NCBI GenBank assembly: GCA_031431875.1
Contig: JANPEF010000044.1
Span: forward strand, 1 to 12,018
Source of the DNA: Candidatus Eiseniibacteriota bacterium
GTDB lineage: Bacteria > Eisenbacteria > RBG-16-71-46 > DASYSL01
Direction of reading: 5' to 3'
Length of the DNA: 12,018 nucleotides
Both the position numbers and the translations under genes were made by a program. How positions within the stretch are numbered: position 1 is the stretch's first letter; each line of letters starts with the position of its first letter. The notes beneath the pieces are model-generated. The model made no database searches. It worked only from the letters and a program-made list of their open reading frames with translations, and was not told the origin of the DNA. Shown here piece by piece: positions 1-12,018 of this stretch.

Positions 1-2382
1 CTACCGCACGTCGGTCCCCTCGGGCAGCCCCGATTCGATCTTCACCTCGCGGAACAGCTTGAAGCGCGCGCGATCGATCATCGGCGCCTCGAGCGGCCAG
101 ACCAGCGTGACGTCCCACTTCCGCGGCGCGAACGGCGGAAGGTCGGCGAGGGAATAGAGGGACGAAACGAGCCGCACTTCGGTCGAAGCCAGATCGGCCA
201 TGAGGGGGCGGGTCATCAGGTCGACGGCGACCTCCGGCCGGCCCAGCCGCACGGCGGTGGCGGCGAGTGAAATGAATCCGCCAACTCCCAGCCCGGGGGC
301 GCCCCCCAACTCGTCGAGCAGTCGCCCGGCCTCGACCGTGCGACCGGCCATCACCGCGAGCAGCGCCTCGTAGCCGCGGACGCTGATTCCGGGATTCCCC
401 TCCTGTCGCAGCCGTTCGAGTACCCGCCCGGCCATGTCCAGGTCGCCCCGCTGGACGTGGGAGCCGAGTTCGAGCGTGTCGGCCGCGACGCCGTAGAAGG
501 GATCCGTGGTCGCCGCGCGAATCCGCTCGGCGAGGCGAAGGGTCTCGTCGAACCGCCCGGTTCCCATCATGATCGTGGCGAGCCACGTCATGGCGAATGC
601 TTCCTGTGGATCGATCTCGAGAACACGGCGGGAGAAGCGCTCCGCGCCGGCCAGGTCCGCGATCGAGTACGCGTCGACACCCAGGTTGATGAGCGCCGGC
701 GTGTAGCGTGGGTCCGCCTCGACGGCCTTGCGCAGGGAGGCCCGCGCCATGTCGAGATCACCGCTGAAGCGCAATGCGAGCGCCTCGGCCTTGTAGCCGT
801 CGGGCAGTTGCGGCGCCAGCTCGATCGCCTTGCGCGCCGCTTCGAGCCCACGCCGCACCAACTCGTCGCGATCGAGCGTCCCGCCCCATTGCACCATCTG
901 CCCGTAGCAATCGGCCGCGCCGGCCCAGGCCCGCGCGTAGCCCGGATCGAGCGCGATCGCCTGCTGGAACAGCTCGAGCGCCTCGGCCAGCGACGCGGCC
1001 GTGTAGTGCCCGTAGCGCTCGCGTCCCTTGAGGTACAGGTCGTAGGCGCGGACGTCGTCGGGCTTGGCCTGCGCGATCTTCGCCGCCTCGCTCGGCGTGA
1101 GCGCGACTGCGAGCGCCTTCGCGATCGACGCGGCGATCTCCTCCTGCACGGCGAACACGTCCTCGAGCGTGCGGTCGTAGCGCTCGGCCCAGAGCTGAAA
1201 TCCGTCGGTCGCGTTCACCAGCTGCACCGTGATGCGCACGCGGTCGCCGGCGCGGCGCACGCTGCCCTCGAGCACGGCGGCGACGCCCAGTTCCTGCGCC
1301 ACCCGCGCCGGCTCGATTGTCTGCCCGCGGTAGCGGGCGACCGCGTTGCGCGAGGCGACGCGGAGGCCCTTGATCTTCGACAGGTCGGTGAGGATGTCCT
1401 CGGTGATGCCGGCGCAGAAATACTCGTTCTCGGGGTCCTTCGCCAGGTTCTCGAAGTAGAGGACGGCCAGCGACGGCGTCATCGCGAAGCTCGAGGCGCC
1501 CACGCCCGACGCCTGCGACAGTTCGCGACCGATCGCCGCGATCTCGCGGCCCAGGTCGCCGATGTCGCGCGGCCGGGACTCGGCGTCCTTGGTCAGGCAT
1601 CGGCGGACGAGTTCGCGCAAGCGCGGCGGGACGCCCGCCGGGAGCGCGTTCCACTCGGGCTCGCGCTCGAGGATGCGCCCGATCACGTCCGACGGCGTGC
1701 CCCCGGCGAACGCGGGCTGGCCGCTCAGGCACTCGAAGGCGATGCAGCCGAACGCCCACACGTCGGTGCGGCGATCCACCACTTGGCCGCGCGCCTGCTC
1801 CGGGCTCATGTAGCCGGTCGTGCCCAGGACGAGCCCGGCCGCCGTGCCCCCCGCCACCGTCGCCGAGGCGGCGAAGTCGGGTGTGGACGTCGCACCCTCG
1901 AACGCGCCGCCGCGGGCCAGGCCGAAGTCGAGCACCTTGATCGTGCGCGACGGCCCGATCATCACGTTGGCGGGCTTCAAGTCGCGGTGCACGATGCCCC
2001 GCTCGTGGGCGGCGGCCATCGCGGCGGCGATCGGTGCGAGCAGCTCGATCGTCTCGCGCACGGGGACGGCGCCGCGGGCGAGACGCTGCGAAAGCGATTC
2101 ACCCTCGACCAGCTCGAGCACGAGGAACGGGGTGCCGTCGAGCTCCTCGAGCCCGTACAGGGACGCGATGTTCGGGTGATTGAGCGAAGCGAGGAGCTTC
2201 GCCTCGCGCTCGAAGCGGCCCAGACGATCGACGTCGCGGGCGAACGCCGCCGGCAGGCCCTTGATCGCGACCTCGCGACCGAGCCGCACGTCGCGCGCGC
2301 GCCACACCTCGCCCATACCGCCGGCGCCGAGCGGGGCGAGAACTTCGTAGGGGCCGATGCGCGTTCCGGGGGCGAGGCTCAC
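1..2382 (-). CDS. Hanks-type Ser/Thr protein kinase with TolB-like/FlgO domain and TPR repeats (paralog 1, 793 aa)
   Basis: All kinase motifs are present: LGAGGMGEV, VAIK, HRDLKPAN, DFG, GTTGYMSPEQ, DVWAFG. These are followed by SLAVLYFENL...EYFCAGITEDILTDLSK...LEGSVRRAGDRVRI...LWAERYD (TolB-like) and TPR-like helices (AYDLYLKG, FQQAIALDPGYARAWAG, RVLEIDP). GTG start at 2380-2382 overlaps the upstream TGA (GTGA); TAG stop at 1-3. No TM segment is evident, so it is likely cytoplasmic. Confidence 0.93.
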   Translation of the reverse strand: MSLAPGTRIGPYEVLAPLGAGGMGEVWRARDVRLGREVAIKGLPAAFARDVDRLGRFEREAKLLASLNHPNIASLYGLEELDGTPFLVLELVEGESLSQRLARGAVPVRETIELLAPIAAAMAAAHERGIVHRDLKPANVMIGPSRTIKVLDFGLARGGAFEGATSTPDFAASATVAGGTAAGLVLGTTGYMSPEQARGQVVDRRTDVWAFGCIAFECLSGQPAFAGGTPSDVIGRILEREPEWNALPAGVPPRLRELVRRCLTKDAESRPRDIGDLGREIAAIGRELSQASGVGASSFAMTPSLAVLYFENLAKDPENEYFCAGITEDILTDLSKIKGLRVASRNAVARYRGQTIEPARVAQELGVAAVLEGSVRRAGDRVRITVQLVNATDGFQLWAERYDRTLEDVFAVQEEIAASIAKALAVALTPSEAAKIAQAKPDDVRAYDLYLKGRERYGHYTAASLAEALELFQQAIALDPGYARAWAGAADCYGQMVQWGGTLDRDELVRRGLEAARKAIELAPQLPDGYKAEALALRFSGDLDMARASLRKAVEADPRYTPALINLGVDAYSIADLAGAERFSRRVLEIDPQEAFAMTWLATIMMGTGRFDETLRLAERIRAATTDPFYGVAADTLELGSHVQRGDLDMAGRVLERLRQEGNPGISVRGYEALLAVMAGRTVEAGRLLDELGGAPGLGVGGFISLAATAVRLGRPEVAVDLMTRPLMADLASTEVRLVSSLYSLADLPPFAPRKWDVTLVWPLEAPMIDRARFKLFREVKIESGLPEGTDVR

Positions 2383-4739
2383 GACTCGGGCATCCCGGAC
2401 TCGATGCGCACTTCTCGGAAGAGGCGCAGGAGCGAACGGTGCATCATCGGCGATTCGACCGGCCAGACCAGCGTCGCCTCGCTGCGCCGGGGCGCAAATT
2501 CGGGCCGATCGAGCAGAGGGTGAAGTTCCGGTTCGATTCGCACGCGAGTGTGCGCATCCGGGTGGACGAGCGGCCGATGGACGAGCCCGGCGGCCCGATC
2601 GAGGTCGCCCAGGCGGACCGCGAGCTGGGCGAGGATCATGAACGAACGAAAGACAAGCGGGAGCTCTTCATCGAACTCGATCAGGGCACGCCGCGCCTCC
2701 TCGAGATTCCCCGCGCGGAGCGCGAGCATCGCATCGAATGACCTGAGCGAATTGTCGTCCGCGCCTCGCGCCCGCGCCGAGTGCAGCGCCTCGGCGGCCC
2801 GTCCGTCCTCCCCACGCTTGAGCAACGCGGTCGCTTCGATCAACGCCTCGGTCGTCACCTGGAACGAGCCGGTGGCGATCGTCGCCACGCGGCGAAGAAT
2901 GTCGAGCGCCTCCTGCGTCCGGCCGGTGTCGACGAGGAGGCCGGAGAGCCAGAGCATGGCGAACGCATCCTGCGGATCGGCCTCGAGGGTGCGCCGGAGA
3001 TACCGTTCGGCGCCCGCCAGGTCCGCCCGTCTGAAGGAGTCCACGCCCAGGTTGTTGAGCGCTGGCGTGAATCGTGGGTCGGCTTCGACCGCCTTGAGCA
3101 GAGAGGCGCGCGACGCGTCGTGCTCGCCGAGACAACTCAGGACCAGCGCCTCGGCCTTGTATCCGTCGGGCAGGCGGGGGTCGAGCTCGAACGCCCGCCG
3201 GGCCGCCGCGAGACCGCGTGCCGCAGCTTCGTCGCGACCGCCTTCCAGCCCGACCTGCATGAGCTGCCCGATGCAATCGCCCACGCCGGCCCACGCGCGC
3301 GCGTATTCCGCGTCGATCGCGATCGCCTGCTCGAAGAGTCCCAAGGCTTCGCGCAGGGATTCTGGCGTGTACTTGTCGTATGCTTCGCGGCCCTTGAGCA
3401 ACAGGTCGTAGGCGCGGACGTCGTCGGGTCGCCCGGCGGCGAACTGCACCGTGTCGCCCGGCGCGAGCGTCACCTTGAGGGCCGCGGCGATCGACGAGGC
3501 GATCTCCTCCTGCACCGCAAAAACGTCCTCGAGCGTTCGGTCGTAGCGCTCGGCCCACAGGTGGAAACCGTCGGCGCCGTTGACCAGCTGGGCGCTGATC
3601 CGCACTCGTTCGCCCGCGCGTCGCACGCTTCCCTCGAGCACGGCGACGACACCCAGCTCTTCGGCCACGCGCATCGGCTCGACCGAAGCGCCACGGTAGC
3701 GGGCCACGGCGTTGCGCGATGCCACGCGAAGCCCGCGCAGCTTCGACAGGTCGGTGAGGATGTCCTCGGTGATCCCGGCGCAGAAGTACTCGCTTTCCGT
3801 GTCCGCCCCCAGGTTCTCGAAGTAGAGCACGGCGAGCGAGGGCAGGGATGTCCCCGGCGATGAGCCGGTGGGACGACTCCCACCGGCCGAGATCTCCTGC
3901 CCGATCGCCGCCAGCTCGCGGCGGAGCTCGGTCATGTCGGCCGGGCGCTCGGCCGCATCCTTCGCGAGGCAGCGGCGCACCAGCGCGCGAAGGCGCTTCG
4001 GCGCGTGCATGGGCAAGGCGTTCCAGTCCGGATCGCGCTCGAGGATTCGGCCGATCACGTCCGACGCCGTCTCGCCGCTGAACGCCGACACGCCTGCGAG
4101 GCACTCGTAGAGGATGCAGCCGGTCGACCAGATGTCCGTGCGCGCGTCGACAACCTTTCCGCGCGTCTGCTCCGGGCTCATGTACAGCGTCGTGCCGAGG
4201 ACGAGGCCGGTGGCGGTCATGGTCGGGGCGATCGTGGCGGATCCGTCCTCCACCGGGTCCGCGGTCCCGCGCGCGAGACCGAAGTCGAGCACCTTGACCA
4301 TGCGAGCGGGTGTGAGCATGACGTTCCCGGGCTTGAGGTCGCGGTGCACGATCCCGCGCGCGTGCGCGGCCTCGATCGCCACCGCAATCTGGACGCCGAT
4401 CTCGATCGTCTCGCGGGCGGAGAGCACGCCGCGCGCGAGTCGTGTCGACAGGGCCTCGCCCTCGACCAGCTCGAGCACCAGACACGGCGTGCCGCCGGCG
4501 TCCTCGAGTCCAAAGATGCCCGCGATGTTTGGATGGCTGAGCGAGGCGAGGAGCCGGGCCTCGCGTTCGAATCGTGCGAGACTCTCCGCATTCCGGGCGA
4601 ACGCTTCCGGGAGCGCCTTGATCGCAACGTCGCGCTCGAGCCGCGGGTCGCGGGCTCGCCACACTTCTCCCATGCCGCCGGCGCCGAGCGGGGCGACGAT
4701 TTCGTAGGGGCCGATGCGCATTCCGAGGGTCAGGGACAT
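2379..4739 (-). CDS. Hanks-type Ser/Thr protein kinase with TolB-like/FlgO domain and TPR repeats (paralog 2, 786 aa)
   Basis: Motifs LGAGGMGEV, VAIK, HRDLKPGN, DFG, GTTLYMSPEQ, DIWSTG, then the same TolB-like/TPR region as paralog 1. Start placed at ATG 4737-4739 (MSLTLGMRIGPYEIV) because it aligns with MSLAPGTRIGPYEV of paralog 1. The 94 extra codons in the ORF track overlap the divergent peptidase gene. Confidence 0.93.
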   Translation of the reverse strand: MSLTLGMRIGPYEIVAPLGAGGMGEVWRARDPRLERDVAIKALPEAFARNAESLARFEREARLLASLSHPNIAGIFGLEDAGGTPCLVLELVEGEALSTRLARGVLSARETIEIGVQIAVAIEAAHARGIVHRDLKPGNVMLTPARMVKVLDFGLARGTADPVEDGSATIAPTMTATGLVLGTTLYMSPEQTRGKVVDARTDIWSTGCILYECLAGVSAFSGETASDVIGRILERDPDWNALPMHAPKRLRALVRRCLAKDAAERPADMTELRRELAAIGQEISAGGSRPTGSSPGTSLPSLAVLYFENLGADTESEYFCAGITEDILTDLSKLRGLRVASRNAVARYRGASVEPMRVAEELGVVAVLEGSVRRAGERVRISAQLVNGADGFHLWAERYDRTLEDVFAVQEEIASSIAAALKVTLAPGDTVQFAAGRPDDVRAYDLLLKGREAYDKYTPESLREALGLFEQAIAIDAEYARAWAGVGDCIGQLMQVGLEGGRDEAAARGLAAARRAFELDPRLPDGYKAEALVLSCLGEHDASRASLLKAVEADPRFTPALNNLGVDSFRRADLAGAERYLRRTLEADPQDAFAMLWLSGLLVDTGRTQEALDILRRVATIATGSFQVTTEALIEATALLKRGEDGRAAEALHSARARGADDNSLRSFDAMLALRAGNLEEARRALIEFDEELPLVFRSFMILAQLAVRLGDLDRAAGLVHRPLVHPDAHTRVRIEPELHPLLDRPEFAPRRSEATLVWPVESPMMHRSLLRLFREVRIESGMPES

Positions 4740-4866: not shown

Positions 4867-6915
4867 ATGCTCACCCGGCCCGTGAACCGCTTCACGCTCG
4901 CGCTGTTCGTCTTCGCCCTCGCCGGGTGCATTGCGGGCGCGACTCCCGCCGCCGCCGGGGCGCCGCCTGCGCTCTCGCTTGCCAACCTGGACACGACGTG
5001 CGCGCCGTGCCGCGACTTCAATCGCTACGCCAACGGCGGCTGGCTTGCCGCCGCGACGATCCCGGCTGCGCTGCCGAGCTGGGGCAGCTTCGACGAGCTG
5101 GCCGAGCGCAACCAGGATGCCCTGCACACGATCGTCGTCCGTGCCGCAGCCGACACGAAAGCCACGCCCGAGTCGGACACGGGCCGCCTGGGAGCATACT
5201 GGTGCGCGTGCATGGACTCGGCGACGACGGACCGGCTGGGTGCGAGGCCGCTCGAGCCTCGCCTGGCCGCCATCGAAGCACTCGCATCGACCCGCGCGCT
5301 TGCCGGCCAGGTCGCCGTGCTGCACGCGGCACCCATCCCGGCCCTCTTCTCGTTCCAGTCGCGGCAGGACCCGAAGCACAGCGAGCAGGTGATCGCGTTC
5401 GCCGGCCAGGGTGGCTTGGGCCTGCCTGATCGCGACTACTACCTGCGCGACGATTCGGCATCGGTCGAGACCCGCGCCCGCTACCTGGCGCACATCGCCC
5501 GCACGTTCGAGTTGCTGGGCTCCGGGCCGGCCCCGGCGCGGGATGCGGCCGACCGCGTTCTTGCACTCGAGACCGCGCTCGCCCGCGCCTCGATGACGAA
5601 CGTCCAACGGCGCGACCCACGGGCCACCTACAACAAGATGGCCGTCGACTCGCTTGCCCGACTCGCGCCTCGCTTCGACTGGACCGCCTACCTCGCGGCC
5701 CGCGGCCTCGCCGCGCTCGACTCGATCAACGTCACGCAGCCGGGATTCCTGCGGGCGGTCGACAGCCTGGTCGCGGCCGTACCGGTCGCCGACTGGAAGG
5801 CATACCTGCGGTGGAAGGCGGCCGACACCGCCTCCGCCGACCTCAGCCGTCCCTTCGTCGACGAGAGTTTCAGCTTCGAGCAGGTCCTGACCGGTGCCGA
5901 GGCCATGCTTCCGCGCTGGAAGCGCTGCCTGCGCTCCCTTGATGCCGACCTCGGCGACCTTCTCGGCCGCGTCTACGTCGCTGAGCACTTCTCGCCCGAA
6001 GCGCGCGCCCGGGCGCTCCGCCTGGTCGACGACCTCGAGGCCGCGCTCGGCGAGCGCATTGCGGAGCTCGACTGGATGGGACCCGAGACTCGCCGGCGAG
6101 CGATCGAGAAGCTGCAGGCCTTCGAGGACAAGATCGGCTACCCGAACACCTGGCGCGACTACGCGGGGGTCTCGCTCACGCGGACGACGCACTTCGCCAA
6201 CCGCGCTGGTGCGCGTGCATGGGAGGCCCGGCGCAACCTGAAGAAGATCGGCCGGCCGGTGGACCGCGGCGAGTGGTCCATGACGGCGCCGACGGTGAAT
6301 GCCTTCTACAGCTCGTCGTTGAACAGCATCAACTTCCCGGCAGGGATCCTGCAGCCGCCGTTCTTCGATCCTTCCTGGGACGACGCGATGAACTACGGCG
6401 GCATCGGCACCGTGATCGGACACGAGATGTCGCACGGCTTCGACGATCGCGGACGCCAGTTCGACGCGCGGGGCAACCTGAGCGACTGGTGGACGGCGGA
6501 GGACGCGGCCCACTACAAGGAGCGCGCCCAGAAGGTCGTCGCACAGTTCGACGGCTACACCGTGCTCGACTCGCTGCACCTCAACGGGAAGCTCACGTTG
6601 GGCGAGAACATCGCGGACCTCGGTGGGATCGCGGTGGCGTACTTCGCGCTGCAGAAGGCGCAGGCGGGGCAGCCGGTGACCAGGATCGACGGGCTCACCC
6701 CGGGGCAGCGCTTTTTCCTCTCCTACGCACAGGTCTGGCGCGAGGCGGTGCGCCCGGCCTCGCTGCGCACGCAGGTCCAGACCGATCCGCATTCACCGGG
6801 GGTCTGGCGCGTCAACGGCCCGCTGTCGAACCTGCCCGAGTTCGCCCGCGAGTTCGGCTGCAAGGACGGCGACGCGATGGTGCGCCCCAAGGAGCAGCGC
6901 GCACGCATCTGGTGA
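4867..6915 (+). CDS. M13 family zinc metallopeptidase (neprilysin/endothelin-converting enzyme/PepO-like), exported, possibly a lipoprotein (682 aa)
   Basis: Motifs PCRDFNRYANGGW, GLGLPDRDYY, KIGYP, VNAFY (6295-6309), FPAGILQPPFF, NYGGIGTVIGHEMSHGFDD (HExxH at 6421-6435), GENIADLGG (6601-) and DPHSP..RVNGPLSNLPEF. N-terminal basic-plus-hydrophobic signal ending in LAGC (Cys21). GGAG RBS supports the start at 4867 rather than 4714. Confidence 0.95.
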   Translation: MLTRPVNRFTLALFVFALAGCIAGATPAAAGAPPALSLANLDTTCAPCRDFNRYANGGWLAAATIPAALPSWGSFDELAERNQDALHTIVVRAAADTKATPESDTGRLGAYWCACMDSATTDRLGARPLEPRLAAIEALASTRALAGQVAVLHAAPIPALFSFQSRQDPKHSEQVIAFAGQGGLGLPDRDYYLRDDSASVETRARYLAHIARTFELLGSGPAPARDAADRVLALETALARASMTNVQRRDPRATYNKMAVDSLARLAPRFDWTAYLAARGLAALDSINVTQPGFLRAVDSLVAAVPVADWKAYLRWKAADTASADLSRPFVDESFSFEQVLTGAEAMLPRWKRCLRSLDADLGDLLGRVYVAEHFSPEARARALRLVDDLEAALGERIAELDWMGPETRRRAIEKLQAFEDKIGYPNTWRDYAGVSLTRTTHFANRAGARAWEARRNLKKIGRPVDRGEWSMTAPTVNAFYSSSLNSINFPAGILQPPFFDPSWDDAMNYGGIGTVIGHEMSHGFDDRGRQFDARGNLSDWWTAEDAAHYKERAQKVVAQFDGYTVLDSLHLNGKLTLGENIADLGGIAVAYFALQKAQAGQPVTRIDGLTPGQRFFLSYAQVWREAVRPASLRTQVQTDPHSPGVWRVNGPLSNLPEFAREFGCKDGDAMVRPKEQRARIW

Positions 6916-6936
6916 GACGGCTTCGTCAGCGCCGCC

Positions 6937-9288
6937 TCAGCCCTTCCTGACGCTGCCCACGACCACCGTGATGTTGTCCGGGCCGCCGCGGGCGCGGGCC
7001 AGCTCGATCAGCGCATCGCAGGCCTGCGCCGGCTCGTGCGCCGCGATCAGCTCGACGATGTCCTCCTCCTCGACGACGTTGCTCAGGCCGTCCGAGCAGA
7101 TCACGATCGTCATCCCGTCCTCGAGCTGGATCGGCTTCGTCGTCAGGTCCACCTGCACGTCCGGGTGGACTCCGATGCAGCGCGTGAGCACGTGGCTCGA
7201 GACCGCCGGCACCGCGGAGCCGCGGGCGCCGGCGACGCGCGCCATCTCCTCGGCCAGCGTGTGGTCCTGCGTGAGCTGCTCGATCGTGCCGCGACGGACC
7301 AGGTAGGCGCGGCTGTCGCCGACGTGCCCGAGCGTCAGCTCGAGCCCGACGATTGCCGCGGCCGTGCAGGTCGTCCCCATGCCGGCGAGCGTCTCGTCGC
7401 CCGACGCCTTCTCGTGCACGGCGCGGTTCGCCGCCTGGAACGCGTGCGCCAGCGCGTCGCGCGGCTGGCCGCGCTTCTTCCCGTGCTCGTAGGTGTCGCT
7501 CACCGTGTCGACGGCCAGGCGGCTCGCCACCTCGCCGGCGGCGGCGCCGCCCATCCCGTCGGCGAGCACCAGCATGCAACCGCGCGCGGAGTCGGCGAAG
7601 CGGTAGACGCCGAATGCATCCTCGTTGTTCCGCCGCGTGCAGCCGACGTCGGTCTGCCCGGCGACGACTAGGCTCCACGTGCCCTTGGCCTTGAGCGCGA
7701 TCGTCTCCTCCATCCGCTGCGCGACCGGCCCGGCGACGACCAGTGGAACCATCGGGGTTGCCTGCGCTTCCGGTGCCGCCCCCGGCAACTCGAGGACGGG
7801 AACGGCCGCGAGCCGCCGCTTGCCCGCCGTCCCGGCGACGCCGGCCTTCTCCGGCACGCCCGTGACTGCGCTCTGGGCCTTCAGGTAGGTCTCGACCGCG
7901 CGCGAGTGCTCGGCCCCGTCGCGGTAGCGCTCGAGGTGCGCCTCGTCGAACTCGGCGAACAACGTGCCCGCGGCGTACAGGTGGATCACCGCCTCGACCA
8001 CGTCGGGGAAGAACTGCGTCCCGGCGTGGGTCAGCATCTCCTCGAACGCCTCCTCGGGAGCAAGGCCGCGGCGGTACGGGCGATCCGACGTCATCGCGTC
8101 GAACGCCGCGACGACCATGATGATCCGGCTGCCCAGCGGGACGGCTTCGCCCACGAGTCCGTTCGGGTAACCCGCGCCGTCCGGCTGCTCGTGGTGCGCC
8201 AGCACGATCTCGGCCGCACCCGGGAAGAAGCGCTGGCCGGCCATCAGCTCGGCGCCGATCCGGGGATGCGCGTGCAGCAGCAGCATCTCCTGCTCGTTGA
8301 GCTTGCCACGCTTCATCAGCACGTCGCGCTGGATCGCAGTGCGCCCGATGTCGTGCAGCAGTGCGGCGAACTCGAGCTCCTCGAGCGCTGCGTCGCGCAG
8401 GCCGAAGTGCCGGCCCAGGCGCAGGCTCATGCGCGAGATGCGGTACGAGTGATCGCGCGTGAACGGATCGGCGGCGTCGACCGCCGACATGAGCGCGCGC
8501 ACCATGTGCAGGTGCCCGGCCCGCGTCTGCGACCACAGGTTGAACGCGTAGCGCGCGAACAGGAGCGGCAGCAGGAACAACGCCACGCCCGCCGGCCCGA
8601 TGCGCACCTGCGTCAGGGCGAGCAGCGGCCCGATCGGCAGGAGGACGAGGTCGCCCGGCAGGTGTTCGGCGAACCATGCGCGGAACGCCCGCGCGTGATC
8701 GCTTCCCGCGGCGAAGGCCTGCCCCACACCGCCGAGGATGCCCTTGACCGCCAGGTACGTGCCGGCGGCGGCAAGCAGCGGAACGAGCTGGTCGACGCTC
8801 ACCGTGAGCGCGTCGCCGTAGCGTCCGCCGAGCTTGCCGTAGACCAGGCCGCCGGAGCCCAGCGCGAGGACGATCTGCCCCAGGCCCTGCACACCGGGCA
8901 GAAACGGATTCCAGCGCTGGGTCGCGTTGGCGACCATGCGCGAGAGGAAACCCACCCAGCACGCGACGGCCGGGCCGAACAGCAGCAATGCGGCGAGATC
9001 GAGGGCGGTGGTCAGGCTCGCGGTGGCGCGACCCCACGGCAGCGGCAGCGGCGACATGGCAGCGACGAGGATCATGGCCGCCCACAGCACCACGTACGAG
9101 CCGCTGTCGATGGTCGTGCCGAGGCCCCCCATGCCGCCGCTCAGCGAGAACAGCAGCGACATCCCGCCGGCGAACACGGTCCAGGCGTAGAGCCGGTAGC
9201 TCGAATGCGTGGTTCTGGGATTCAAGATCCATCCTCCTGCCGGCGCCGCCGGTGCGGGGGTCGAGGTCGAACTGGGGCGGCGGCTCAT
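6937..9288 (-). CDS. Membrane sensor (MASE9-like multi-TM) - HD-GYP - PP2C/Stp1-type Ser/Thr phosphatase fusion protein (783 aa)
   Basis: ATG 9286-9288 overlaps the pilT-like TGA (ATGA). About 9200-8545: several hydrophobic helices (e.g. ASLTTALDLAALLLFGPAVACWVGF). About 8500-7980: HD-GYP (DPFTRDHSYR, LLHDIGR, HPRIG, HHEQPDGAGYP, FDAMTSDRPYR). About 7680-6937: PP2C (TDVG..RRNNED, ADGMGG, GMGTT, HVGDSRAY, LTQDHT, CSDGL, GGPDNIT). One uninterrupted frame. The MASE9 label comes from recalled similarity and was not searched. Confidence 0.88.
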   Translation of the reverse strand: MSRRPSSTSTPAPAAPAGGWILNPRTTHSSYRLYAWTVFAGGMSLLFSLSGGMGGLGTTIDSGSYVVLWAAMILVAAMSPLPLPWGRATASLTTALDLAALLLFGPAVACWVGFLSRMVANATQRWNPFLPGVQGLGQIVLALGSGGLVYGKLGGRYGDALTVSVDQLVPLLAAAGTYLAVKGILGGVGQAFAAGSDHARAFRAWFAEHLPGDLVLLPIGPLLALTQVRIGPAGVALFLLPLLFARYAFNLWSQTRAGHLHMVRALMSAVDAADPFTRDHSYRISRMSLRLGRHFGLRDAALEELEFAALLHDIGRTAIQRDVLMKRGKLNEQEMLLLHAHPRIGAELMAGQRFFPGAAEIVLAHHEQPDGAGYPNGLVGEAVPLGSRIIMVVAAFDAMTSDRPYRRGLAPEEAFEEMLTHAGTQFFPDVVEAVIHLYAAGTLFAEFDEAHLERYRDGAEHSRAVETYLKAQSAVTGVPEKAGVAGTAGKRRLAAVPVLELPGAAPEAQATPMVPLVVAGPVAQRMEETIALKAKGTWSLVVAGQTDVGCTRRNNEDAFGVYRFADSARGCMLVLADGMGGAAAGEVASRLAVDTVSDTYEHGKKRGQPRDALAHAFQAANRAVHEKASGDETLAGMGTTCTAAAIVGLELTLGHVGDSRAYLVRRGTIEQLTQDHTLAEEMARVAGARGSAVPAVSSHVLTRCIGVHPDVQVDLTTKPIQLEDGMTIVICSDGLSNVVEEEDIVELIAAHEPAQACDALIELARARGGPDNITVVVGSVRKG

Positions 9289-10358
9289 GCGGCATCCCGC
9301 AGCGGCGGGTTCGTGTCGAGCGGCGTCCGGTCGAGGCCGTTCAGCGCGGCTTCCTCCGGGTCGATGAGCTTCTTGCGCACGAGGTCGCGGAGCACCGCAT
9401 CGAGGCCCTGCATGCCGAGGCTGCCGCCGGCCTGGATCACCGACTCGAGCTTGTGGCTGTTGCCGGCGCGGATCATCGCGGCTGCGGCGTGCGTGTTGAC
9501 CAGGATCTCGGCTGCGGCAAAGCGCTTGGCCCCCTCGGCGGCGCGCACCAGTCGCTGCGAGACGACCATGCGCAGGCTCTCGGCCAGCATGGCGCGGATC
9601 TGGTCCTGCCGCCGCGCCGGGAAGACGTTGATGACGCGGTCGATCGTCTTGGCCGCGCTCGCCGTGTGCAGCGTGGCCAGCACCTGGATGCCGGTCTCGG
9701 CTGCGGTCAGCGCGAGCGAGATCGACTCGAGGTCGCGCAGCTCGCCGACGAGGATCACGTCGGGGTCCTCGCGCACGGCGTTGCGCAGGGCCTCGGCGAA
9801 AGTTGGCGCGTGCGTGCCGATCTCGCGCTGGGTGACGACACACTTCTTGACCGGGTGGACGTACTCGATCGGGTCCTCGATCGTGATGATGTGCCCGCGC
9901 CGGGTCTCGTTGAGCAGGTCGACCATGGCGGCCAGCGTCGTCGACTTGCCGGATCCCGTGGGGCCGGTGACGAGGATCAGTCCCTTGGGCTGCAGCGCCT
10001 GCTGGCGGATCACCGGCGGCAGGCCGAGGTCGTCGAGGGTCGGCACGTTCGACGAGATGATCCGCAGCGCCGCGGCAAGTCCCTGCGCATGCCGGTAGAC
10101 GTTGGCGCGGAAGCGCCCCATCCCAGGCACGTCGTAGGCGAAGTCGACGGCGCACTTCTCGTTCAGCTCGGCGATCTGCCGCTCGTTCATGAACTCGAGC
10201 AGGATCGACTCGACGTCCTCGAGTGACAGCTCGCGGAAGCGCACCCGATGCAGGACACCCGCGATCCGGATGCACGGCATCTGCCCGGTCACCAGGTGGA
10301 GGTCGGATCCGCCCTGCTGCATGGCCAGCTCGAGGAACGTGTGGAGGCGTGTCGACAT
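9285..10358 (-). CDS. pilT: PilT/PilU-family type IV pilus retraction-type ATPase (copy B, 357 aa)
   Basis: GSDLHL N-terminus, RFRANVY, Walker A GPTGSGKST, Asp box TIEDPIE, QREIG, Walker B REDPDVILVGELRD, His box variant AAETGIQVLATLH. ATG 10356-10358 starts 1 nt after the upstream stop. Confidence 0.9.
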   Translation of the reverse strand: MSTRLHTFLELAMQQGGSDLHLVTGQMPCIRIAGVLHRVRFRELSLEDVESILLEFMNERQIAELNEKCAVDFAYDVPGMGRFRANVYRHAQGLAAALRIISSNVPTLDDLGLPPVIRQQALQPKGLILVTGPTGSGKSTTLAAMVDLLNETRRGHIITIEDPIEYVHPVKKCVVTQREIGTHAPTFAEALRNAVREDPDVILVGELRDLESISLALTAAETGIQVLATLHTASAAKTIDRVINVFPARRQDQIRAMLAESLRMVVSQRLVRAAEGAKRFAAAEILVNTHAAAAMIRAGNSHKLESVIQAGGSLGMQGLDAVLRDLVRKKLIDPEEAALNGLDRTPLDTNPPLRDAA

Positions 10359-10359
10359 G

Positions 10360-11469
10360 TCAGGCTCCCGCCGGCCGCGCCGGCCCCTTCTCGAGCGTGG
10401 CGAGCAGTTCCGGCCGGGTCACGAACATGACGAACTCCGACTTGTCCGCGGCGCACAGGAACGCCTCGTTGGGATCGATGTCGCCGGAGCGCACGTAGCT
10501 GAGCAGCGCCTGGTCCATGAGCTGCATACCGAGCCGGCGCCCCGTGCCGATCGCGCCGGCGATCAGGTGCGACTTGCCCTCGCGAATGAGCTGGGCGATC
10601 GCCGGGGTCACGATCATGACCTCGCAGACGACGCGCCGCCCGCGGCCGTCGGCCACGTGCACCAGCTCCTGGCTGACCACCGCGCGCAGGTTGTCCGCCA
10701 GCGTGTGGCGGACCTGCGCCTGCGCCTCCGCGGGGAACGCGTCGACGATGCGATGGATCGTCTGCGCGGCGCTGCGGGTGTGCAGCGTGCCGAACACCAG
10801 GTGTCCCGTCTCGGCCGCCTCGATCGCGGCGGTCATGGTCTCGCTGTCGCGCATCTCGCCGATCAGGATCACGTCGGGGTCCTGCCGCAGGCACGAGCGG
10901 ATGCCCTCGTGGAAGCTGCGTGCGTGCACCCCCACCTGGCGCTGCATGACCAGCGCCTTGTTCGACTCGTGCACGAACTCGACCGGATCCTCGAGCGTGA
11001 TGATGCTGCAGTTGCGGTTGGCGTTGATCTCGCCGATCAGCGCCGCCAGCGTGGTCGTTTTCCCGGTGCCCGGCCCACCGGTGACGAGCACGAGCCCGGA
11101 ATCGAGATTGGCCAGCTCGGAGAGCACGGCGGGAAGCGCCAACTCCTGCGGGCGCGGCACCTGGTCCGGCACGACGCGACAGATCGCCGCCATGCCCAGG
11201 CGCTGGCGGAACACGTTGATGCGGAAGCGTCCGCCGTTCGGGCAGGCATAGCTCAGGTCGACCGAGCCGTTGCGTCCCAGGTCCTCGACGGTCGCGGGAT
11301 CGAGGATCTCGAGCAACAAACCTTCGGTCTCGTCCGCGGTGAGCGCGCGATGCGGGAGCTCGGTCAACTGGCCGTCGAGGCGAACCAGCGGCGGACGCCC
11401 GATCGTGAAGTGGATGTCGGAGCCGCCCTGGTCGCGGCCGAGCTGGAGGAACGCGTCGAGTTGGGCCAT
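10360..11469 (-). CDS. pilT: PilT/PilU-family type IV pilus retraction-type ATPase (copy A, 369 aa)
   Basis: GSDIHF, RFRINVF, Walker A GGPGTGKTT, TLEDPVE, RQDPDVILIGEMRD, His box AAETGHLVFGTLH, AIRNLIRE-like AIAQLIREGK, GMQLMDQAL. Strong SD GGAGGT 7 nt upstream of the ATG, overlapping the kinase stop codon. Confidence 0.92.
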   Translation of the reverse strand: MAQLDAFLQLGRDQGGSDIHFTIGRPPLVRLDGQLTELPHRALTADETEGLLLEILDPATVEDLGRNGSVDLSYACPNGGRFRINVFRQRLGMAAICRVVPDQVPRPQELALPAVLSELANLDSGLVLVTGGPGTGKTTTLAALIGEINANRNCSIITLEDPVEFVHESNKALVMQRQVGVHARSFHEGIRSCLRQDPDVILIGEMRDSETMTAAIEAAETGHLVFGTLHTRSAAQTIHRIVDAFPAEAQAQVRHTLADNLRAVVSQELVHVADGRGRRVVCEVMIVTPAIAQLIREGKSHLIAGAIGTGRRLGMQLMDQALLSYVRSGDIDPNEAFLCAADKSEFVMFVTRPELLATLEKGPARPAGA

Positions 11470-11474
11470 GGCGG

Positions 11475-12018
11475 TTACCTCCCGACCTCGAGGGCTTCGA
11501 GGGCTTGGTCGATCGTGGCGCGGAGCGCTCCGGCATCCGCCGGCCGCTGGTTCGGATCGCGGGCCATCGCGCGCATGACGAGCTCCGCGACGGAGTCCGG
11601 AATCCCGGGAACAGCCTGGGCCAGCGGCACGGCGTTCCCCTCGAGGTGCTGAAACAGGACCTTCACCGGCGTCTCGGCGGTGAACGGCTTGATGCCCGAC
11701 AGCGCCTCGTAGAGGACGACGCCGAGCGAGTACAGGTCGGCCCGATGATCCACGGCCTCGCCCGAGATCTGCTCGGGCGCCATGTACTCGGGCGTGCCGA
11801 TCAGGAGCCCGCTCTTGGTCAAGCGCGAGGCATCGGCGCCTCCCTGCTGCGCCGAGGCGAGGCCGAAATCGACGATGCGGGTCTCGTCGTCGGCGCCGAC
11901 CAGGATGTTCGGAGGCTTGATGTCGCGATGAACCACTCCCTCGGCGTGGGGCGCGGGCCCGCCCGGGCCTAACAGGGCGGGGGTGGGCAGGGCGCGGCGC
12001 CCGGCGAGCGGACCGCCC
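11475..12018 (-). CDS. Hanks-type Ser/Thr protein kinase, C-terminal part (5'-truncated by the window edge)
   Basis: [44 protein letters not shown] and RP (subdomain XI). TAA stop at 11475-11477. The frame stays open from 11936 to the window end, so the ORF-track start at 11936 is not the real start. Confidence 0.9.
11477..11482 (-). promoter_or_regulatory. Shine-Dalgarno for pilT copy A embedded in the kinase 3' end
   Basis: The minus strand reads ...GGGAGGTAACCGCCATG. GGAGGT overlaps the last codons and the TAA of the kinase gene. Confidence 0.75.

Follow-up and report, generated by a model that had tools for sequence, protein, structure and literature searches.

The stretch analysed here (the window, 12,018 nucleotides from Candidatus Eiseniibacteriota bacterium) is an entire contig (C44) of a 3.75 Mb genome with 70% GC. 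Its principal feature is a run of four co-oriented genes on the minus strand, which encode the C-terminal part of a Ser/Thr kinase, two PilT-like ATPases (PilT-A and PilT-B) and a fusion protein composed of a membrane domain, an HD-GYP domain and a PP2C phosphatase domain. The kinase gene continues on a second contig of the same genome (C20) and is preceded there by a gene for an FHA protein; the full operon order is FHA, HEAT-kinase, PilT-A, PilT-B, fusion.

The operon and its two contigs

The genes and domains are located as follows.

C44, 11475-12017, minus strand: C-terminal part of the kinase (reliable part 11475..11948; Pkinase, 96 bits)
C44, 10360-11469, minus strand: PilT-A (369 amino acids; TIGR01420, 419.7 bits, cut-off 319.1)
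C44, 9285-10358, minus strand: PilT-B (357 amino acids; TIGR01420, 430.9 bits, cut-off 319.1)
C44, 6937-9288, minus strand: membrane/HD-GYP/PP2C fusion (783 amino acids; HD_5, 110.6 bits; PP2C_2, 67.7 bits)
C44, 8524..9207, minus strand: MASE9-like multi-pass membrane domain of the fusion (residues 28-255, from hydropathy peaks)
C44, 7969..8493, minus strand: HD-GYP domain of the fusion (from alignment to 4MCW)
C44, 6949..7671, minus strand: PP2C/PPM Ser/Thr phosphatase domain of the fusion (NF033484, 218.6 bits, cut-off 230)
C20, 1957..about 92, minus strand: HEAT repeats and N-lobe of the kinase (tblastn with the kinase of G001, a genome of the same genus)
C20, 2632..1961: FHA gene with a C-terminal membrane helix, upstream of the kinase

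Five nucleotides separate the kinase stop from the pilT-A ATG, with a GGAGG overlapping that stop, and one nucleotide separates pilT-A from pilT-B, exactly as an earlier, sequence-only reading of the window had described. The same reading took the ATGA at the pilT-B/fusion junction for an overlap of the two genes. The sequence is indeed present, but it can arise merely from the C-terminal Ala codon of pilT-B followed by TGA, and the fusion has an alternative in-frame TTG start at 9225 (with GGAGG upstream; the resulting 762 amino acids correspond to the database gene call) that would widen the gap to 59 nucleotides, which makes translational coupling at this junction uncertain. The scan for promoters and terminators gave no signal exceeding that of shuffled sequence.

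The last ~70 nucleotides of the window (11949-12018) are a low-quality contig end, and in four DNA runs from a single study, which may be the source, the contigs listed also stop at 11948-11956 or earlier. A tblastn search with the full-length kinase of G001 assigned residues 1-626 to C20 (87% identical) and residues 616-795 to C44, the two contig ends decaying over identical codons. No contig bridging C20 and C44 was found among those listed for the four runs; the join is deduced from the uninterrupted kinase gene of two genomes of the same genus (G001 and G002), and the similar contig depths on the two sides fit one genome. The upstream contig, which the sequence-only reading expected to hold the N-terminal part of the kinase, does hold it, with the FHA gene in front. 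As a consequence, the picture of a circuit self-contained in the window had to be abandoned, since the FHA gene and the 450-residue HEAT domain of the kinase both lie on C20.

The conserved core and its variable partners

A search with the HEAT region retrieved 1771 protein clusters at E<=1e-20 and, from GTDB genomes, at least 583 confirmed stretches, the best 80 of which (from Eisenbacteria/Krumholzibacteria and many Gammaproteobacteria) were annotated together with 45 regions from relatives. Genes in these 125 loci were called heuristically, some starts being short, and motif counts for partner genes are lower bounds. The survey yielded 104 distinct kinases: both PilT genes come next in 88 cases, a contig end interrupts the locus in 15, and a single one (L165) lacks the PilTs. 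The trio is thus kept in 88 of 89 assessable loci across Eisenbacteria and Gammaproteobacteria, the pair following the kinase immediately and most gaps being <25 nucleotides. Among 206 genomes of the phylum, 65 have the kinase, 65 have a member of the PilT-A clade (delimited by a score gap >410 bits), 63 have both and 139 have neither, while all four discordant genomes, with the kinase or PilT-A alone, are fragmented; as kin are not independent, this co-presence is a count rather than a test. Overall, HEAT-kinase, PilT-A and PilT-B constitute the invariant core of the system.

The possibility that common signalling genes merely happen to be neighbours in a kinase-rich genome deserves consideration, as this genome contains at least 44 kinase motifs (which makes adjacency to a kinase weak evidence by itself) and five PP2C motifs, and the window alone has two further, unrelated kinase genes. 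This explanation is hardly credible, being refuted by a gene order maintained in 88/89 loci over two distant lineages, by joint presence in 63/67 genomes and by the purifying selection found on all genes tested. The two additional kinases are encoded by tandem kinase-TPR genes (1-2382 and 2379-4739, minus strand), and an M13 peptidase gene (4867-6915, plus strand) converges on the fusion with a 21-nucleotide gap; we place all three outside the module because the flanking genes differ in relatives.

The conservation of gene order on which the sequence-only reading depended holds for the trio but not for the fusion, which is found in 21 of the 206 genomes (19 of them with the kinase; in the other two the contigs end just upstream) and in none of 29 gammaproteobacterial loci. 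Similarly, the notion of a kinase and a phosphatase bracketing the pair is sound as far as the Hanks and PP2C motifs are concerned, both sets being intact, but the phosphatase does not belong to the core (21/206 genomes versus 65/206 for the kinase). In the 40 Eisenbacteria-type loci with 6 kb of downstream sequence the fusion occurs 13 times, any co-directional PP2C 15 times and a degenerate HD-GYP domain at least 28 times; in gammaproteobacterial loci a PP2C gene lies upstream in 4/32 and an FHA-GAF-HD-GYP gene is present in 7/32. The phosphatase is therefore a lineage add-on, and HD-GYP is the more constant partner. The FHA gene immediately precedes the kinase in 43 of 46 Eisenbacteria-type loci and lies downstream in 12 of 29 gammaproteobacterial ones. 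More generally, the variable partner genes encode nucleotide enzymes (FHA-GAF-HD-GYP, cyclase-FHA and GGDEF-EAL), several of them fused to FHA. Co-transcription is not general, since an antisense HD-GYP gene intervenes downstream of pilT-B, usually before the HD(-PP2C) gene, in 19 of the 40 Eisenbacteria-type loci.

Several side observations were made in the course of this survey. The antisense (FHA-)GAF-HD-GYP proteins (e.g. L033:13408-14664, L083:8225-9490, L090:7514-9091) keep the catalytic Lys and Asp, have GTGP[F/Y] in place of GxGYP, and have no close copy in the genome of the window (best 35% over the HD part). A small protein with a weak DUF6812 match (E 0.0015) is encoded upstream of the kinase in 9/32 gammaproteobacterial loci (e.g. 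L145:9476-9943, L146:6024-6521). The trio of Woeseiaceae-type loci is located amid housekeeping genes (L176, L177, L180-L182, L184, L187, L195). A second divergent A/B pair in genome G082 (L251, G082:C1, 8682-11973) is followed by an HD-GYP gene whose product keeps the Lys and has lost the Asp.

Sequence features of the module proteins

The full-length kinase comprises about 790 residues, ~450 of which form HEAT repeats, and has no other Pfam sensor domain. In the alignment of 68 kinases the Hanks motifs are invariant (G527 and G529 of the Gly loop, the beta-3 Lys K549, the alphaC Glu E568, H641-R642-D643 with K645 and N648, D661-F662-G663, and P692-E693 of APE/SPE), as is T678 of the activation loop; the portion encoded in the window holds the motifs of the C-lobe. 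Judged by its motifs, the protein is an intact Hanks-type Ser/Thr kinase. Four consecutive HEAT repeats bear invariant Trp, Arg, Glu and Asp residues (R271, E275, W298, W299, R303, R333, E337, W360, W361, E364 and R365 are identical in 68/68). The nearest solved structures to this region are alphaRep binders, in which the same helix positions form the binding surface and vary from repeat to repeat. Candidate ligands of the HEAT face are PilT-A/B, peptides and small molecules. A protein atlas search with the HEAT domain returned generic HEAT clusters only, and inter-protein covariation over 68 paired rows (effective number 46, with no valid control) gave no interpretable signal. An anti-phage defence function was considered and rejected: PADLOC matches only the kinase domain (residues 512-788) and assigns none of its families to the other four proteins.

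The FHA partner retains the phosphothreonine-binding motifs (GR, SxxH, NG) in 49/49 Eisenbacteria-type and 16/17 gammaproteobacterial proteins, the nearest solved relatives of its domain being GarA/OdhI, FHA switches that control 2-oxoglutarate dehydrogenase. Its tail has an invariant Thr followed at +3 by a hydrophobic residue (T-x-x-L) in 49/49 proteins, and such a Thr occurs twice in all 17 gammaproteobacterial ones. FHA domains show a preference at the pT+3 position. The best predicted substrate of the kinase is this T-x-x-L tail, in a GarA-like fashion.

Both PilT-A and PilT-B have the Walker A, Asp box, Walker B and His box motifs, which are conserved across their clades, and the nearest solved structure to the pair is 3JVU. 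A quick maximum-likelihood tree of 88 rows (26 of 90 A sequences, 27 of 87 B sequences, 33 other paralogues from 11 genomes and two PilB outgroups) resolved A and B each as one clade spanning Eisenbacteria and Gammaproteobacteria (SH-aLRT 99), apart from the canonical PilT groups (linked to yggS or to pilB) and separate from the gammaproteobacterial PilU clade (7 rows). Two of the other paralogues fall inside A and B, and these are the second, divergent pair of G082. By this phylogeny the two proteins are paralogues outside PilT and PilU, additional to the ordinary motors of the host. In fact, contig C132 of the host carries a pilB-pilT-pilC-pilS-pilR-pilin cluster (identified by TIGR matches and reading of open reading frames), and yggS-pilT-pilU is found elsewhere in the two gammaproteobacterial hosts examined. 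G. sulfurreducens is likewise said to have extra PilT paralogues. Some N-terminal residues (F7, Q14, R41, E54, Y74) are common to A and B and absent from other PilTs, a pattern that points to a new partner surface on both.

The sequence-only reading had proposed that the kinase and the PP2C reversibly phosphorylate PilT-A and/or PilT-B, switching an auxiliary retraction motor, the FHA proteins then being adaptors. The constant position of the kinase directly upstream of the pair speaks for such a scheme, as do two potential acceptor residues enriched in the PilT-A clade, S169 (88%/97%, compared with 21% in other PilTs) and T309 (86%/100%, compared with 39%). The Thermus extension motor PilF has reportedly been found phosphorylated (by Wu and colleagues, 2013), and we counted this in its favor as well. 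On the other hand, PilT-B has few clade-specific Ser/Thr residues, most of its conserved ones being shared catalytic residues, it is the FHA tail that has the clearest conserved candidate acceptor, and most carriers of the core have no PP2C. We consider this scheme doubtful, as the sequences provide no specific support for direct phosphorylation of the PilTs.

A separate observation concerns the C-termini of the module proteins. In Eisenbacteria-type loci (L031-L144) a terminal -AA is found in the antisense HD-GYP (23/23), PilT-B (40/48; in the window at 9285-9293), HD-only proteins (16/20), PilT-A (30/49) and the kinase (26/52), and is absent from the membrane proteins (FHA 0/49, fusion 0/14), against a genome background of 40/1215. 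Many other Eisenbacteria PilT paralogues end in -AA, and gammaproteobacterial PilTs do not. The tails, which resemble an ssrA/ClpX-type degron, suggest proteolytic control of the soluble members of the module. Another contig of the genome (G000:C91) has two short pilT-like fragments (6751-7035, L029 and L030), both in one small open reading frame region that may be a remnant, close to a Tad pilus locus (C91 14900-24600).

For the fusion, 139 homologues were found at E<=1e-100, and the 120 examined comprise 103 members of the fusion family and 17 unfused MASE9-HD-GYP relatives. The membrane domain is 42-47% identical to the N-termini of HD-GYP proteins bearing PF20972, that is MASE9 (17/17, E<=1e-47); the PF20972 model itself has no match on C44 and a sub-threshold match only on a C95 paralogue. 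An ECF (energy-coupling factor) S-component, the sole Pfam match to the membrane domain (E 0.23), was dismissed. The metal-binding aspartates of PP2C (NED, DGMGG, GDSR, SDG, DN) are present in the window, each of the five Asp sites being kept in 102/103 homologues, and the metal ligands of the phosphatase are thus intact by sequence, although the domain falls short of the cut-off of the Stp1/IreP equivalog NF033484.

Aligned to PmGH (4MCW), the HD-GYP domain of the fusion keeps HD, HHE, GYP, RxY, D308 and R314, while the K225 site is occupied by Arg (8341-8343; Arg in 103/103 family members) and the D305 site by Ala (8107-8109; Ala, Gly, Ser or Thr in 103/103). The unfused relatives keep both Lys and Asp (17/17). 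According to PMC4159591, K225A abolishes the activity of PmGH and D305A markedly reduces it, while GYP and R314 serve in substrate recognition. The domain is the best conserved one of the fusion (66% identity versus 56% for PP2C) and has a ratio of nonsynonymous to synonymous rates (dN/dS) of 0.066 relative to G001. The loss of K225 and D305 with retention, under strong selection, of GYP and the guanine contacts makes a binding role the simplest reading, and the domain is probably a nucleotide sensor and not a catalyst; to this extent the nucleotide-sensing phosphatase envisaged earlier is supported.

Alternatively, the HD-GYP domain might be an active phosphodiesterase with an altered metal centre or substrate, which would make the fusion a bifunctional eraser (phosphodiesterase plus phosphatase). 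H221, H250, H276, H277, D308 and GYP are essentially invariant in the family (as is R314), the PmGH D305A variant kept detectable activity, and the same domain is also found alone, without PP2C or a membrane part. All this would fit an enzyme; yet two independent catalytic positions are changed in 103/103 members, a third position, the metal ligand H189, is altered in about a fifth of them, and the Asp is lacking from 35/36 co-directional HD-GYP domains of the loci, whereas the antisense HD-GYP partners keep it in 23/23. An active enzyme therefore seems rather unlikely to us.

A proposed relay and its relation to known systems

We tentatively put forward, as an interpretation just short of probable, that the conserved operon encodes a relay based on threonine phosphorylation, through which the PilT pair would be coupled to cyclic-nucleotide signals. 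The sensor-less kinase would dock on PilT-A/PilT-B through its invariant HEAT face and would be gated by the PilT pair, which may act in trans on the type IVa pilus machine of the host. The kinase would then phosphorylate the Thr of the FHA tail (similarly to GarA/OdhI) and recruit FHA-bearing nucleotide enzymes where these are present. PP2C would remove the phosphate mark, its activity being set by the MASE9-like domain and by the binding of c-di-GMP (cyclic di-GMP), or of a dinucleotide like it, to the degenerate HD-GYP domain, and in the fusion-bearing lineage this nucleotide-gated phosphatase would close a feedback loop. Every step from binding onward is what we infer from comparing sequences. 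A more specific version, which we regard as speculative and rather improbable, has the PilT pair report pilus state or load to the docked kinase, with FHA mediating a change in c-di-GMP or cyclic AMP and the dead HD-GYP-PP2C feeding back; the partner census (FHA-linked nucleotide enzymes) is consistent with this motor-to-messenger direction.

Several observations weigh against the relay. The link between the kinase and the PilTs is breakable, because neither a kinase nor an FHA gene adjoins the second A/B pair of G082, which lies next to an HD-GYP gene, and because at L165:10001-12300, the only clear exception among the 89 loci, the HEAT kinase is followed by a ribosomal-protein-like gene. The steps beyond docking are not universal, as many gammaproteobacterial loci hold the trio only (those of the Woeseiaceae type have no FHA, HD-GYP or PP2C gene nearby). 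The HD-GYP domain may be a slow enzyme, given that the K-to-R replacement is conservative and that PmGH D305A retained some activity. PilB-like genes are present in 198 of the 206 phylum genomes, which renders co-occurrence with pili uninformative. Finally, the AIRNLIRE motif, which models place at the interface with PilC and which PilU lacks, is only partly kept, averaging 4.6/8 letters in A and 3.1/8 in B of Eisenbacteria.

The last point bears on another interpretation, that the PilT-like pair no longer works on the pilus and instead uses ATP to scaffold or remodel the kinase complex or some other machine, its likeness to motors reflecting ancestry. Neither in the window, as the sequence-only reading had remarked, nor in the 125 related loci is there a pilB, pilC, yggS or prepilin-like gene; A and B fall in separate clades, the hosts own an ordinary PilT (and PilU in gammaproteobacterial hosts) elsewhere, and AIRNLIRE is eroded, especially in B of Eisenbacteria. 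However, type IVa pilus genes are present in all hosts examined, M. xanthus PilT paralogues located outside the main locus affect motility, and PilT-A of the window keeps six of the eight AIRNLIRE letters (AIAQLIRE; PilT-B has AAAAMIRA, 3/8). The motif does not discriminate in any case, because the host-type PilT group linked to pilB scores similarly (just 4.4/8 on average). We consider a function away from the pilus rather unlikely, and the role of PilT-A/B as pilus-retraction motors remains a putative one.

Two questions are open, namely what regulates retraction ATPases and by what route pilus activity becomes a second-messenger signal. For both, the module offers a small and mostly soluble set of proteins, with candidate residues in the HEAT face (W298/W299/W360/W361), the FHA tail (Thr) and the HD-GYP domain (R316/A394). 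Should the motor-to-messenger version of the relay prove true, hundreds of species in at least two distant lineages would possess a surface-sensing pathway made of PilT-type motors. The dead HD-GYP fused to PP2C would represent a new class of c-di-GMP receptor and, being tied to a Ser/Thr phosphatase, a direct link between c-di-GMP and phosphothreonine signalling. A literature search with poor coverage of subscription journals returned no description of PilT with a HEAT-repeat Thr kinase and FHA, only off-topic papers for PilT and HEAT repeats, no report of a PilT retraction ATPase phosphorylated by a Ser/Thr kinase, and no description of a degenerate HD-GYP-PP2C fusion as a receptor. The module is real, widespread and, as the sequence-only reading had surmised, apparently undescribed.

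Each of its parts can be compared with a known system. The PilT/PilU tandem of V. cholerae and P. aeruginosa (3JVU/3JVV; 10.1101/2025.10.30.685630) is likewise a pair of neighbouring TIGR01420 ATPases whose catalytic motifs are complete, and the short conserved C-terminal tail of PilT-A bears a loose resemblance to the PilT-binding tail of PilU. Unlike this tandem, A and B belong to neither clade, are never found by yggS or pilB/pilC and always follow the HEAT kinase. The additional M. xanthus paralogues (MXAN_6705/6706, MXAN_0415; PMC13584747) are similarly outside the main pil locus, partly in tandem and with intact motifs, and some have motility phenotypes; the accessible part of that paper mentions no kinase linkage. 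The fusion shares HD, HHE, GYP, RPY and a related membrane domain with PmGH (4MCW) and MASE9-HD-GYP proteins (PF20972), and differs from PmGH in the replacement of K225 (Arg) and D305 (Ala/Gly/Ser/Thr) and in its C-terminal PP2C.

GarA/OdhI (PMC8339232) likewise combine an FHA domain having GR, SxxH and NG with a conserved Thr motif of their own outside the domain, and are self-inhibited by phosphorylation of this tail; in the PknF-Rv1747 pair described in the same source, phosphorylation of the FHA linker controls Rv1747, a transporter driven by ATP. In contrast to GarA/OdhI, the FHA protein of the module has its Thr motif at the C-terminal side instead of the N-terminal one, carries a membrane anchor and is encoded with PilT-like ATPases. 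Another parallel is the threonine phosphorylation pathway of the type VI secretion system (PpkA, Fha, PppA; PMC3953482), where a kinase, an FHA protein and a PP2C also share one locus, a combination found here in Eisenbacteria-type loci with the fusion. In the present case the partner is a pair of PilT-like ATPases (the would-be target being again an envelope machine), the kinase bears HEAT repeats without any Pfam sensor, a C-terminal helix anchors the FHA protein in the membrane, and the phosphatase forms one polypeptide with a degenerate HD-GYP and a MASE9-like domain. No parts of a type VI secretion system were seen among the flanking genes scanned, which vary between loci, no search aimed at its core genes having been made. 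Overall, the module is built from known parts, and its scheme is that of kinase-FHA-PP2C switches, the type VI pathway among them.

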